Origin: Ktedonobacterales bacterium
GTDB lineage: Bacteria; Chloroflexota; Ktedonobacteria; Ktedonobacterales; JADMIN01
Direction: 5' to 3'
DNA length: 32,000 nucleotides
Assembly (NCBI GenBank): GCA_030167145.1
Contig: CP126532.1
Location: forward strand, 2,340,001 to 2,372,000
The position numbers and the translations under genes were made by a program. Shown here piece after piece: positions 11,613 through 15,072 of this stretch. Each line of letters begins with the position of its first letter. The stretch's first letter is position 1. Under the pieces are notes generated by a model. That model ran no database searches. It saw only the letters and a list, made by a program, of their open reading frames with translations, and was not told where the DNA came from.

Positions 11613-12410
11613 ATGACCGCGATCTGTGTCGCGAATAACAAGGGCGGCGTCGGCAAGACGACCACCGCCGTCAACCTCGCCGCCGGGCTGGCCCGTCTCA
11701 ATTTCCGAGTCCTCGTGGTGGATGTGGATGGGCAGGCAAACGCTACGTATGCCCTGACCGGACGGGTACATCCCGTGCCGTCGCTCTATGATGTGCTGGT
11801 GGGCGACCGCAAGCTGGAAACTGTGCTGTGGAAGACCAACGAGGAGAACGTGTGGATTGTTCCTGGTGACGGGCGCTTGCAGAACGCCGATGTGGAGATG
11901 GCGTCGCGTCCGGGGCGGGAGTGGCGGCTGGCCAAGGCGCTCTACGGGCAGGACTTCGACTATATCATTTTGGATACGCCGCCGTCGCTGGGGGTGCTGA
12001 CGCAGAACGCGCTGGCCGCCGCGCATCGGGTGCTGATCCCGATTTCGCTGACGGAGTTCAGCCTGATTGGGATGGATAAGCTCGAAGCGACTATCGAAGA
12101 TCTGCGCGACCAGCTTGACCTGTATGATCTGGAGATCGCGGGGGTGGTGGCGACGTTCTACGAGAACACGACGACGGCGAATGAGACGTGGGGCATTCTG
12201 GAAAAGAAGTTTGAGGGGCGGATGCTGGAAACGCATATCCCCAAGAACCTCGATCTGGAGAAGGCGCACCGCGAGAACGAGAGCATTCTGAGCTTCGCGC
12301 CGAATAGCAGCGGCGGCCAGGCGTATATGCAGCTCGCACGGGAGGTAAAGCGACTTGTCCCAGCGCACACGCGCCCATACGACCGGCGGCGCTCCACGCA
12401 CTCCGCCTAA
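11613..12410 (+). CDS. parA: ParA/Soj-family partition ATPase
   Basis: Deviant Walker A NNKGGVGKTTTAVNLA, then VLVVDVDGQANAT and ILDTPPSLG (Walker B region). Confidence 0.92.
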   Translation: MTAICVANNKGGVGKTTTAVNLAAGLARLNFRVLVVDVDGQANATYALTGRVHPVPSLYDVLVGDRKLETVLWKTNEENVWIVPGDGRLQNADVEMASRPGREWRLAKALYGQDFDYIILDTPPSLGVLTQNALAAAHRVLIPISLTEFSLIGMDKLEATIEDLRDQLDLYDLEIAGVVATFYENTTTANETWGILEKKFEGRMLETHIPKNLDLEKAHRENESILSFAPNSSGGQAYMQLAREVKRLVPAHTRPYDRRRSTHSA

Positions 12411-12918
12411 GGCGAAGGCGACCAAGAACGCGGCGTCGCAACATACGACGCCAGCCACCGACACGGCAGAGCAGCGTGATACGGAGGCGCGGCTGCCGCT
12501 GGCGGCGGAGACGCTGGCGCGGACACTGCGCGCGGTGGCCGACGAACTGGAGCGCGACCCGGCGCTGGCGCGGCGCATCGCGGGGGCCGTGCGAGAGACG
12601 CCCACGGATGGGCCGTCCCCAGCAGAAGCGGCAGAGGAGCCAGCTACGCCGCCGAAGCGCCCCACACGCGCGTTCAAGCCGAAGCTGATCACCGGCGCTG
12701 GCCCGGAACTGGGCACGGGCATTCCCGACCCCTTCGCGCTGTACACTACGCTGGGCGAGGCGGGGCTGCGCGCGGCGCTGGATGAACTGCGGCTGGGCAC
12801 GCTGCGCGCGATGGTCCGCGAGCATGGGCTGGACCCCAGCGGACGCGCGAGCAAGCAGAACGATGCGGAGAAGCTGCGCGAGGTGATATTGCGGGCGGTG
12901 GCGGTGGCGAAGAGATAA
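12355..12918 (+). CDS. ParA-associated small protein (disordered basic N-terminus, helical C-terminal domain); possible centromere-binding/adaptor protein
   Basis: TTG start at 12355 sits 8 nt after a strong GGGAGGT and overlaps the parA 3' end by 56 nt. The C-terminus LRAALDELRLGTLRAMVREHGLDPSGRASKQNDAEKLREVILRAV resembles a helix-extended-helix (Rho_N/SAP-like) motif; that resemblance is weak inference. Confidence 0.6.
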   Translation: MSQRTRAHTTGGAPRTPPKAKATKNAASQHTTPATDTAEQRDTEARLPLAAETLARTLRAVADELERDPALARRIAGAVRETPTDGPSPAEAAEEPATPPKRPTRAFKPKLITGAGPELGTGIPDPFALYTTLGEAGLRAALDELRLGTLRAMVREHGLDPSGRASKQNDAEKLREVILRAVAVAKR

Positions 12919-12949
12919 ACTCCCCCTGGTAATTCGTGTGTCCGCATGC

Positions 12950-13177
12950 TATACTGCGTGGCAGAACAGAAGAGAACGTGCGATGGGCGTACCCGCGCCA
13001 ACGGATACGCCCATCTGACCCCGGCGCTGAGGCAACAGCGCGAGGGCTGCCCATAGGATAGCACGCGAGCGCGCATGACGCCTAGCTCGCCGCTGCTCCT
13101 ATCCCGCCCCCTTCGCATCTGCTCCCTCATCAGCGCCTCAAGTGAATTGGAGGCGTACCCCTATGCGATCCCCATGA
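12950..13177 (+). ncRNA. candidate structured RNA element, copy A (leader or sRNA) ending in SD + 4-codon mini-ORF
   Basis: TATACT at 12950-12955, a 10-bp hairpin at 12982-13015, and the conserved blocks TCTGACCCCGGCGCTGA (13014-13030), CAGCGCCTC (13131-13139) and GGAGGCGTACCCC (13149-13161). ATG 13163 opens MRSP-stop. Paralogous to 13782-14024. Confidence 0.45.
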
Positions 13178-13235
13178 CGGGTGTTTTCCGCTTATCGGCG
13201 CGATCCGCGTATATCGTCCTGTGGTGTTTCTTTTC

Positions 13236-13257
13236 GTGAGATATGCTCACCTTTTTC
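13236..13257 (+). terminator. weak terminator-like hairpin
   Basis: GTGAG-atatg-CTCAC followed by CTTTTTC. The stem is short (5 bp). Confidence 0.3.
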
Positions 13258-13405
13258 ACGCTCAAACGGAGGGAAAGGCTGCCTTTGTGGTAGCTCTCCT
13301 TGAATGCAGCGCTCTACTTTGCTATTGCTGGGGCAGTGCTGCTCAGCCTGAAATAATGAGCATTCGCGAAGAGATGGCGAAATTGATTGGCATGTGCGCA
13401 ACAAA

Positions 13406-13428
13406 GGGTATCACGTCATGTGATACCC
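13406..13428 (+). promoter_or_regulatory. perfect 9-bp inverted repeat (operator or RNA hairpin) just upstream of the SD of the short Ant-type gene
   Basis: GGGTATCAC-gtcat-GTGATACCC, followed by GGAGG (13433-13437) and ATG 13448. A positionally equivalent hairpin GCGTGTA-tga-TACACGC lies at 14173-14189. Confidence 0.4.
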
Positions 13429-13447
13429 CTGCGGAGGAACAAAATCC

Positions 13448-13762
13448 ATGGCAGATGAGCAAGGTGAGGTATTGATTCCTGTCGAGCAAACTTTGGTGTC
13501 GTTCCATGAGCGCCATATCGTGGCGGTTCGACTCTCTGACGGGCGCGTTGCCGCTGTTCTAAGTTCGTTGTGCGATGCACTGCAAATGCTTACGCGAGGT
13601 CAGGCACGACGCATCCACGCAGATGATGTGCTCAGCGAGCAACTCTTACCGGCCCGTATTGAGACGAGTGGTGGACCACAAACGATGGATGTGCTGACCG
13701 CTTGGGCAATTCCAACATGGTTGCGAAGTGCCCCAGTCTCCTGGACGGTACTTTGTGTGTGA
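13448..13762 (+). CDS. P22 Ant N-terminal-domain (P22_AR_N-like) protein, short/truncated paralog
   Basis: About 40% identity by eye to the N-terminus of 14236-15072 (VLIPVEQ..F..R.IVAVRLSDGRVAAVL..LC...MDVLT...IPTWL). It ends shortly after the domain, where the second repeat module begins. Confidence 0.65.
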   Translation: MADEQGEVLIPVEQTLVSFHERHIVAVRLSDGRVAAVLSSLCDALQMLTRGQARRIHADDVLSEQLLPARIETSGGPQTMDVLTAWAIPTWLRSAPVSWTVLCV

Positions 13763-13781
13763 CAATCGCATCGCATTATGG

Positions 13782-14024
13782 TATACTCGCCGCAGACATA
13801 CATGTGCGAACGCCGCCCGTGCTGGAAACACGAACGGCGCTCTGACCCCGGCGCTGAAGTTAGCAGCGGACAGGGCTTGTAGCAGCATAGCATGCGACAC
13901 GGGCAATAGCATAGACTCAACTGACATCACTCGCTCAAGCCGCACGCATCTTTGCTTCCCCTTTCCAATTTCTCACCCCAGCGCCTCCATATCCTAAGAG
14001 GAGGCGTACCCCATGGGAACTTGA
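13782..14024 (+). ncRNA. candidate structured RNA element, copy B (leader or sRNA) ending in SD + 3-codon mini-ORF
   Basis: GTGACA-17 nt-TATACT promoter (-10 at 13782-13787) and a hairpin at 13811-13839. Carries the same three conserved blocks at 13841-13857, 13979-13987 and 14000-14012. ATG 14013 opens MGT-stop. Confidence 0.45.
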
Positions 14025-14235
14025 TTCGTTTCCTGTGCAAGCCCCGGGCAAGCTCGATGAAGACACCACCTATTGGGCCGCACCTGCGCCCAAAAGTATC
14101 GCAGAAGGTTCATAGCGGTGTTCTGCGCTAGCGTCAGCGCGATCATATGGTAGCGAGGCGCATATGGGTGGGGCGTGTATGATACACGCGCGCTCCCTTG
14201 CTAGGTGAAAAATTGAGCACAGAAAGGCTGAACAC

Positions 14236-15072
14236 ATGGGAACTGACAGCGGGCAGGGGATGGGCGTATTAACGCCGGTAGACCAAGCCTCTATCCCATT
14301 CTATGGCCGCGACCTGATTGCGGTCCGACTTGCGGACGGTCGGGTATGCGCGGTGTTACGTTGGCTGTGCGAAGGCATGGGGCTGGATAGTAACGCGCAA
14401 TTACAGCGTATCAAGCGGAAAACAGCGCTACGCGACGATCTGGTACATGTACGGGTTATGACAGAGTATGGCGAAGCGCCTATGGCCGCACTCACCTTGC
14501 ATGGCTTACCAGGCTGGCTCTATGGCATAGACGAAACGCGGTTAGCGAAAGCAGAAGCACGTGCAGCCGTCATTCTATTTCAGCGCGAAGCTACGGATGT
14601 ACTTGCACGTCACTTCGAGCGCCGTCCAGCGGATCCACCTGCACCGCCAGACCTCGTGCCTGCCGAGCCGATCACCAAGCCCGAAGCACCGGGCGAAGGC
14701 GCGCCGTTTTCAGCCTGGCGCGCGTACTATCAAGGGATGCTCGCGTTCATAGATTGGCAAGCCGCTATTGAGCAGTGGCGCGGGTCGGTCGAAAGTCGGC
14801 TGGAGGGTGTCGAGGAGATCACGCGGCTGGTGCCGGAGATTCTCGACCGGCTGGGGCCGCAGACGCTGACGCCGGAGCATCAAGCAACGGTGAAGGCGTC
14901 AGCGAAGCGGCTAAATGAACTGACCGGCATCGCCTACGCGACGATCTATGGCGAGCTAAATGAGGCGTTCCATGTGGGCAAGTACAGCGACGTACCAGAG
15001 AGCCGCTGGCTGGATGTGGCGGCGTGGTTGCGGGCGCGGATAGCGGCTGCTGAGAAGCGCCACACGTCGTGA
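14236..15072 (+). CDS. phage antirepressor-like protein (P22 Ant N-terminal domain + helical C-terminal region)
   Basis: IPFYGRDLIAVRLADGRVCAVLRWLCEGMGLDSNAQLQRIKR...MAALTLHGLPGWLYGIDETRL follows the P22_AR_N pattern (vpF.G..., GLd...Q, gWL..I). Confidence 0.85.
   Translation: MGTDSGQGMGVLTPVDQASIPFYGRDLIAVRLADGRVCAVLRWLCEGMGLDSNAQLQRIKRKTALRDDLVHVRVMTEYGEAPMAALTLHGLPGWLYGIDETRLAKAEARAAVILFQREATDVLARHFERRPADPPAPPDLVPAEPITKPEAPGEGAPFSAWRAYYQGMLAFIDWQAAIEQWRGSVESRLEGVEEITRLVPEILDRLGPQTLTPEHQATVKASAKRLNELTGIAYATIYGELNEAFHVGKYSDVPESRWLDVAAWLRARIAAAEKRHTS

Follow-up and report, generated by a model that had tools for sequence, protein, structure and literature searches.

In IS10, the antisense RNA-OUT overlaps its target, RNA-IN, by approximately 35 nt that include the start codon; in phage P22, the Psar promoter lies inside the leader of ant and faces the ant promoter; and in phage P1, translation of icd is coupled through Rho to the expression of ant. 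The P22 sar and P1 c4 families are both present in Rfam. The sar antisense RNA controls ant in the immI region of P22 (PMC2629481), and ant of phage P1 is controlled by c4, a structured RNA at the start of the ant operon that is complementary to a site by the ribosome-binding site (RBS) of a small first open reading frame (ORF) (PMC8198154). In hok mRNA, pairing between the tac and ucb elements controls the Shine–Dalgarno (SD) sequence of mok, and the antisense RNA Sok originates from a promoter inside the leader (PMC9841398). These systems are the nearest described counterparts of a leader element that occurs twice (copies A and B) ahead of antirepressor-like (ant) genes in a Ktedonobacterales bacterium (Chloroflexota), and that was analyzed here within a 32,000-nt stretch of its DNA (the window; contig CP126532.1, positions 2,340,001 to 2,372,000 of the forward strand).

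We cautiously favor the view that each copy is a module in which an antisense RNA gene sits between facing promoters, inside an antirepressor-gene leader carrying a fold-back SD switch. The two facing promoters would lie about 100 bp apart, the plus-strand promoter (TGnTATACT) starting the mRNA leader of the antirepressor-like gene and the minus-strand promoter (TGnTATCCT or TATGCT) starting an antisense RNA of about 75 nt—hairpin P2′ followed by hairpin P1′—to which the opening ~75 nt of the leader are complementary throughout, including the segment termed block 1 (GGCGCUGA). Block 1 could thereby find three partners: a local arm of the mRNA (hairpin P2), a distal YCAGCGCC element (the long-range helix), or the antisense RNA. 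Part of the distal element is shared with the anti-SD sequence CGCCUC, which would otherwise close a hairpin over GGAGGCG-N6-8-AUG. With the antisense RNA absent, block 1 would capture the distal element, leaving the SD open and the first frame translated; with the antisense RNA bound, block 1 would be locked in a duplex and the distal element would close the SD hairpin. The antisense RNA is likely the trigger of this switch. The mRNA–antisense duplex may also be cleaved, and the convergent promoters may interfere with each other. Since the gated frame has only 3–4 codons or is non-conserved in this genome, any effect on ant, 220–290 nt downstream, would have to be an indirect one, exerted by read-through coupled to translation or by RNA stability. 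What the computations show is the conservation and covariation, the promoter boxes, and the asymmetry between strands; that the antisense RNA is expressed, where its 3′ end lies, and which way the regulation runs are inferred.

As in hok/Sok, a 5′ element (tac there, block 1 here) alternates between two partners, one of which is the anti-SD (ucb there, the distal CGCCUC here), the SD of a small upstream frame (mok there, a mini-ORF here) is freed or hidden, and a small antisense RNA—predicted in the present case—comes from a promoter within the leader. A preliminary description of this DNA had likened it to the fold-back control of hok-type mRNAs, and that likeness fits: block 1 corresponds to tac and the distal anti-SD to ucb, their pairing freeing the SD of a small upstream frame. 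Unlike hok/Sok, the locus has no toxin ORF and no Rfam match, and the downstream gene is antirepressor-like; block 1 pairs alternatively with a local hairpin arm rather than with the mRNA 3′ end; and the predicted antisense RNA covers the tac-like element rather than the RBS. With P22 sar, the module shares a target operon encoding a P22_AR_N antirepressor and an antisense RNA from a facing promoter in the ant leader. However, sar overlaps the ant RBS, whereas the overlap here is the 5′-terminal ~75 nt, upstream of the first SD by 115–140 nt and, in the window, upstream of ant by more than 400 nt. The window moreover has no arc or mnt gene, nor is there sequence or structure similarity to sar. 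A small structured RNA at the start of the ant operon is also found in P1/P7, where translation of a small first ORF governs ant, but c4 is processed out of the sense transcript and has its target site downstream, whereas the selected RNA is here on the opposite strand. The Rfam C4 and sar models gave no match between 12850 and 14300 even at E ≤ 10. IS10 resembles the module in its two convergent promoters and in a stable stem-loop antisense RNA whose complement is the very 5′ end of the mRNA, but the overlap here excludes the start codon and the target is not a transposase. Finally, SymR (RF01809) is likewise a two-hairpin antisense RNA overlapping a 5′ untranslated region, and was the only Rfam model with a weak hit (copy B, minus strand; 27.9 bits, E = 0.009); this score is far under the gathering score of 61, neither copy A nor eight homologous loci gave a hit, and no symE-like gene is found here.

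At the gathering score, Rfam 15 gave no match within the window, and at E ≤ 10 the region 12850–14300 gave four hits, three at chance level (E 0.75–9.3) in addition to the weak symR hit; the cores of the eight homologous loci gave none with any Rfam model. ARAGORN found no tRNA or tmRNA genes between 12800 and 14300, and a literature search found no paper describing the core or leader element. As read from its sequence, the element is thus a previously undescribed combination of an antisense RNA and a fold-back leader, for which there is no Rfam family. We know of no RNA regulators in the phylum, and with the module, if it is confirmed, Ktedonobacterales (Chloroflexota) would have its first defined system of RNA-based regulation. 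The module would add to Rfam a covariation-supported family of antisense RNA plus leader, and would combine mechanisms that are usually separate—cis-antisense RNA from convergent promoters, and a hok-like gate in which a 5′ element folds back on an anti-SD—in the service of Cas1-solo operons and antirepressor-like genes that are present in several copies at dispersed chromosomal sites.

Strand asymmetry of the core and the putative facing promoters

Fourteen distinct cores were collected, all from Ktedonobacterales assemblies and all on the coding strand of the downstream gene, which encodes a P22_AR_N protein, a Bro-N protein, or a zinc-finger/Cas1-domain ORF that is then followed by Bro-N/Ant (homologous loci are designated by L numbers, and the two window copies winA and winB). 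A search with the Ant protein led to five loci in Ktedonobacterales metagenome-assembled genomes, every one with the upstream element; a metagenome scan with a permissive pattern gave at least three true homologs among the matches listed (L087, L173, and L184), the rest being chance matches; and a covariance model of the core (R1) revealed more cores upstream of Ant paralogs and orthologs fetched by protein identity. Viral contigs scanned for block 1 and for the P2 pattern yielded only coding LTPAL stretches or unrelated terminator hairpins. Ant loci without the core are also found (L235, L222–L224, and L232–L234).

On the plus strand, the conserved order is TGnTATACT, a spacer of 11–31 nt, GUGCGA, P1 (14 bp), CUGACCCC, P2 (GGCGCUG/CAGCGC), and GAGGGCU; 3′ of the latter follow the conserved boxes GGAUAGCAYGCG and GCCUAGC, a C/U-rich linker, and the distal YCAGCGCC. 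After the distal element, type 1 leaders (winA, winB, L218, L220, L071, L073, and L221) continue with the SD hairpin CGCCUC/GAGGCG and an AUG, and type 2 leaders (L069, L070, L072, L173, L225, and L226) with a GC-rich hairpin, AAAGGGG...CCCCUUU, called the T hairpin, directly 5′ of the Ant SD.

The local hairpins P1 and P2 covary strongly across the homologs, the arms of P1 varying freely in sequence with their complementarity kept. Read on the plus strand, P1 comprises 167 Watson–Crick cells, 2 G·U cells, and 27 A·C or C·A cells in the 14 cores, with no other type of mismatch. Since an A·C on the plus strand reads as a G·U on the minus strand, this asymmetry points to the minus strand as the one on which P1 is under selection. 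P1′ on that strand is 99.0% paired in a plain, unfitted MAFFT alignment, with compensatory changes in 12 of its 14 pairs, a value reached by none of 500 shuffles, and 8 of 14 sequences share a U·G wobble at one of its positions. The antisense-strand stem-loops have 97.1% of their cells paired and compensatory changes in 15 of 20 pairs, and the wobble pairs are on the minus strand. In each of the 14 cores the minus strand had the lower minimum free energy (MFE), the plus strand folding 4–14 kcal/mol worse, and the mean energy of P1 was −25.8 kcal/mol on the minus strand versus −17.3 kcal/mol on the plus strand (Wilcoxon p = 0.0002). Because of the strand asymmetry of P1, and because the minus strand has a conserved −10 box of its own, the core, with its two hairpins and ~75 nt, is most likely a cis-antisense small RNA (sRNA) gene between convergent promoters. 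A processed sense-strand RNA in the manner of P1 c4 was discarded because of the strand asymmetry.

In copy A, the predicted cis-antisense sRNA occupies 12978–13048 on the minus strand (5′-AGCCCUC-P2′-GGGGUCAG-P1′-UCGCAC; 82.8 bits with R1). Its 14-bp hairpin P1/P1′ (12982–13015, minus strand) is an inverted repeat that covaries and whose plus-strand mismatches are all A·C. The copy A core folds at −47.8 kcal/mol on the minus strand, as two clean hairpins, versus −40.3 kcal/mol on the plus strand. The predicted copy B sRNA (13804–13877, minus strand; P2′ then P1′, with P1 at 13808–13842) scores 80.2 bits with R1, and its core folds at −41.8 versus −29.2 kcal/mol on the minus and plus strands, respectively.

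Extended −10 boxes face each other across both cores. On the plus strand, the putative ant-leader promoter is marked by TGCTATACT (12947–12955) in copy A and by TGGTATACT (13779–13787) in copy B, the latter with GTGACA 17 nt upstream; TGnTATACT-like boxes are located 11–31 nt before GTGCGA in 11 of the 14 homologs. On the minus strand, the putative antisense promoter is marked by TGCTATCCT (13055–13063) in copy A and TGCTATGCT (13884–13892) in copy B, each 6 nt before AGCCC, and a box stands 6–7 nt before AGCCC in all 12 homologs with enough sequence: TGnTAT(C/G)CT in eight, TGnTACCCT in one, and TACAAT in three. The last three form a divergent subfamily (subfamily 2; L071, L073, and L221), in which the unrelated TACAAT sits at the same minus-strand position. 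Such a swap of sequence at constant distance points to a promoter rather than to RNA structure. A conserved box that could be taken for a third plus-strand helix (P3) is the reverse complement of the extended −10 element, and the P3 boxes are explained by a minus-strand −10/−35 pair. In the 32-kb window, TGNTATVCT was seen six times versus 1.5 expected, and four of the six are the two face-to-face pairs bracketing the cores.

The preliminary description had read the pairings in this region as the expression platform of a riboswitch or a translational riboregulator. A riboswitch is unlikely here, and we see only a slim chance that P1–P2–P3 on the plus strand forms an aptamer for a metabolite or protein that would govern the SD by switching between P2 and the long-range helix, with no antisense RNA. 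The conserved junction nucleotides (GUGCGA, CUGACCCC, and GAGGGCU), the covariation of two alternative helices, and the closeness in energy of the alternative folds would all suit an aptamer. However, the hairpins around block 1 bear the mark of selection on the minus strand (P1 has 27 A·C and 2 G·U on the plus strand) and have their own minus-strand −10 box, the plus strand folds worse in every case, and the minus-strand −10/−35 pair, with its TACAAT swap, accounts for the P3 boxes. Moreover, the neighboring genes are antirepressor-like or belong to mobile elements rather than to metabolism, and no Rfam riboswitch matches. Nothing indicates a link to a ligand or to the Ant or ParA-partner proteins that had been put forward for probing, nor does anything indicate a toxin ORF. 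The case illustrates that sense-strand helices plausibly taken for a riboswitch can turn out otherwise once the balance of G·U and A·C is compared between strands.

Competing helices in the leader

With the antisense RNA gene as the preferred reading of the core, the leader mRNA would still have three helices to choose from, as first noticed in the preliminary description, whose copy A oligonucleotides are all in place: GGCGCTGA at 13023–13030, CAGCGC at 13036–13041, TCAGCGCC at 13130–13137, CGCCTC at 13134–13139, and GAGGCG at 13150–13155. In copy B, GGCGCTG (13850–13856), CAGCGCC (13979–13985), CGCCTCC (13982–13988), and GGAGGCG (14000–14006) are likewise found; CAGCG, given as 13865–13869, is actually at 13864–13868, the only coordinate in need of correction. 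All three helices can be drawn in both copies. In copy A, block 1 CTGACCCCGGCGCTGA and the local hairpin P2 span 13015–13041 on the plus strand, GCGCTG at 13024–13029 pairing with CAGCGC at 13036–13041. A C/U-rich, G-poor linker, recognized by reading of the sequence (13107–13129, plus strand), has a pyrimidine-rich counterpart in nearly all homologs. It is followed by the distal element with TCAGCGCC, the complement of block 1 (13130–13139, plus strand), which overlaps the anti-SD CGCCTC, and then by 13149–13177 (plus strand), which holds the SD block GGAGGCGTACCCC, the AUG at 13163, and the mini-ORF MRSP* (13163–13177). The copy B distal element, CCAGCGCC (13978–13988, plus strand), overlaps the anti-SD CGCCTCC, and the SD block GGAGGCGTACCCC, the AUG at 14013, and the mini-ORF MGT* lie within 14000–14024 (plus strand). 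The two copies are identical at 17 of 17 positions in TCTGACCCCGGCGCTGA and at 13 of 13 in GGAGGCGTACCCC, and in both an ATG stands 1–2 nt past the latter block.

Within a single sequence, dinucleotide-shuffled versions of the 330 nt past block 1 form duplexes with it that are as stable as the best real one (z = +0.3 in copy A and −0.1 in copy B), so that the long-range complementarity is not significant by itself and takes on meaning only with the homologs. Across 12 leaders and eight positions, 89.6% of the long-range helix is paired in register versus 31–52% when slid, and none of 5000 permutations reaches this value, for sequences that are related and a GCGC that is palindromic. The helix is kept in register in 11 of the 12 leaders, and cognate pairs of block 1 and distal element are more stable than non-cognate ones (P = 0.0009). 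Double changes include GACGCUGA:UCAGCGUC in L226, GGCGCUAG:CUAGCGCC in L073 and L221, and GG:CC in L218 versus GA:UC in copy A; overall, GC is replaced by AU in L226, L073, L221, and winA, and by UG in L070, in which the helix extends to 12 bp (z = −2.8). The SD hairpin and AUG recur in seven leaders, the seventh, inner pair varying among C-G, U-A, and G-C, and the SD block and AUG are retained in all four paralogs of this genome despite divergence around them. The proposal of mutually exclusive pairings—local, long-range, and SD hairpin—is thus borne out as conserved among related Ktedonobacterales leaders, each helix showing at least one independent compensatory change.

Thermodynamic folding, suggested in the preliminary description for both copies, finds the long-range and SD-hairpin states in each, a few kcal/mol apart. 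In copy A, the MFE structure is the long-range state and the state with P2 and the SD hairpin is 3.1–3.6 kcal/mol higher; in copy B, the MFE structure is the SD-hairpin state and the long-range state is 5.2 kcal/mol higher. In six long leaders, RNAalifold instead proposes to close the structure by four base pairs that join the 5′ GUGC to the distal GCGC, which would be a weak rival pairing, being short and involving a palindromic GCGC.

These results bear on an alternative that we regard as unlikely yet worth serious attention, namely that the antisense sRNA is real and the plus-strand switch is not. The SD hairpin would then be a constitutive damper or the relic of an ancestral start, the distal YCAGCGCC would resemble the 3′ arm of P2 through shared ancestry and the palindromy of GCGC, and control would be exerted only by the duplex, by RNase III cleavage, or by promoter interference. 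The shuffle result, the self-complementarity of GCGC and its pairing with GUGC by RNAalifold, the nearly unchanged SD accessibility in the models, and the lack of conservation of the mini-ORF peptides all agree with this alternative. On the other hand, the register-specific pairing and the permutation tests support the long-range helix, as does the 12-bp helix of L070; in L226, where block 1 has A for G, the compensating change (C to U) is found in the distal element and not in the local P2 arm; and the SD block and AUG persist in the four paralogs of this genome although the sequence around them has diverged.

Several points weigh against the module of antisense RNA and fold-back switch as a whole. 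No intrinsic terminator (hairpin plus U-tract) follows P1′ on the minus strand, although P1′ itself may be the 3′ hairpin of the antisense RNA. The G·U/A·C balance leaves the strand undecided for P2, for the long-range helix (6 G·U versus 4 A·C), and for the SD hairpin. Both promoters are putative, being deduced from motifs, and subfamily 2 has no recognizable plus-strand −10 box near the core. The distal anchors were set by eye, L225 being a misfit, and five leaders that run directly to ant (L069, L070, L072, L173, and L225) have no SD hairpin. Forcing P2 or the long-range helix shifts the SD accessibility of the modelled ensemble only slightly. Furthermore, the gated ORFs of the window have 3–4 codons and encode non-conserved peptides, so that the link from the gated SD to ant expression is conjectural.

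Core copies and the DNA-level alternative

At least four core–ant paralogs are present in this genome, some amid housekeeping genes; one of them, L218, lies between sucCD and ftsH. Another, L220, is on a short contig that begins within the core and is therefore invisible to R1, and was recognized by reading of the sequence. Short-read contigs of the same organism start inside the core at CGGACAGGGCTTG (L002 1–13, L220 1–13, and L219 1–42), which is attributed to assembly breaks at a multi-copy repeat. In L087 (minus strand), a partial duplicate of the core start (ATGTGCGACAGGCGCATC, then ATGTGCGATGGGCGCATCC) lies between the −10 box and P1.

The multi-copy, scattered occurrence of the unit and the breaking of short-read assemblies within its core could also be understood if the core were a DNA-level signal of a mobile core–ant cassette—a minus-strand single-stranded DNA hairpin for a recombinase or replication protein, or an operator palindrome—with only incidental complementarities on the plus strand. 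G·T pairs are tolerated in a minus-strand single-stranded DNA hairpin as well, some copies adjoin Cas1-domain, integrase, or D5 primase genes, and an inverted repeat surrounds the minus-strand −10 box. We nevertheless consider such a signal improbable. Unlike a sequence-specific operator, the P1 arms change freely with complementarity kept; the core has a constant orientation and distance to the downstream gene and to the −10 boxes of both strands; no HUH or Y1 transposase is nearby; and no matching element is seen beyond the far end of the gene, where in the window only 25 nt lie between the ant stop codon and a convergent HAD hydrolase gene. The inverted repeat in question (AGGATAGCA/TGCTCCTATCC, 13055–13063 and 13096–13106) brackets the minus-strand promoter, occurs also in L072 and L226, and may be an operator or an RNA stem.

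A 9-mer of the copy A P1 5′ arm (GGCGTACCC, 12986–12994) recurs in both SD blocks (13152–13160 and 14003–14011), which would make the copy A antisense RNA complementary to the SD–AUG spacer of both copies. That RNA might then also reach the two SD blocks, which are identical, by way of the common 9-mer GGCGUACCC. Returning to the antisense module, we advance as a doubtful extension that the core–ant units are a semi-autonomous cassette family of Ktedonobacterales, each paralog with an antisense RNA of its own, with copy-specific "immunity" conferred by the variable P1′ and a shared hok-like gate formed by the invariant fold-back of block 1 and the distal element, some units driving Cas1-solo operons. 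Such a family would constitute an RNA-addressed control network for antirepressor-like regulators.

Genes downstream of the element and the region before ant

The locus lies within a chromosome-size Ktedonobacterales contig of 5.07 Mb with 62% G+C. The full-length antirepressor-like gene of copy B (14236–15072, plus strand) encodes 278 aa (P22_AR_N Pfam E = 8e-20; PHROG 524, anti-repressor Ant) and begins 223 nt beyond copy B, and a truncated Ant ORF (13448–13762, plus strand; 104 aa, the P22_AR_N part only) begins 285 nt beyond copy A. The sequestered SD is thus not the RBS of Ant, for which it might have been taken, each Ant gene having its own SD and its own hairpin at these distances. The gap from the end of the truncated ORF to the extended −10 box of copy B is 16 nt, and the arrangement of the two copies suggests a tandem duplication in which the first ant gene has decayed.

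In this genome, the gated AUG opens MRSP*, MGT*, MYSP* (L220), or a non-conserved ORF of ~40 aa, whereas in L071, L073, and L221 it opens a real gene, zinc-finger/Cas1. In this core subfamily, zinc-finger and Cas1-domain ORFs follow the core (L071 991–2327, L073 1048–2585, and L221 3461–4918), and then a Bro-N/Ant-C gene; zinc-finger and Cas1 are fused in L221 and split in L073, and the L221 ORFs adjoin a D5_N primase gene. These three loci may represent a Cas1-solo or casposon-like element in Ktedonobacterales. Overlapping ORFs of 16–37 aa after the SD show no conservation. A type I toxin reading was dropped, no conserved peptide or small hydrophobic toxin ORF being found past the regulated SD.

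In copy A, MRSP* overlaps, at an ATGA, a 21-aa ORF (13174–13239, plus strand) whose stop codon (13237–13239) belongs to the 5′ arm of a terminator-like hairpin with trailing CTTTTTC (13236–13258, plus strand). This layout, which is not clearly conserved, would allow translation-dependent read-through.

Upstream of copy A, a ParA-type ATPase gene (11613–12410) and an overlapping 187-aa ORF (together 11613–12918) directly precede the element in an otherwise chromosomal context. The 187-aa ORF has no family match and is possibly the partition partner of ParA.

The T hairpin of copy A (AAAGGGTATCAC-GTCA-TGTGATACCCCT, 13403–13430, plus strand) is just 5′ of the SD of the truncated Ant ORF, and an imperfect one (14170–14197, plus strand) precedes the Ant gene of copy B. 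This GC-rich hairpin—an AAAGGGG stem, a UCAU/AUGA loop, and CCCCUUU—is found directly 5′ of the Ant SD at both window Ant ORFs and in L069, L070, L218, L222, L225, L226, and L233, and it also stands before Ant genes without the antisense core. In L218, the T hairpin, SD, and a pseudo-start are tandemly duplicated. Conceivable, too, are an anti-terminator pairing of the hairpin's G-rich arm with the C/U-rich linker and a loading of Rho onto that linker. The T hairpin could be an attenuator or a protein-binding operator.

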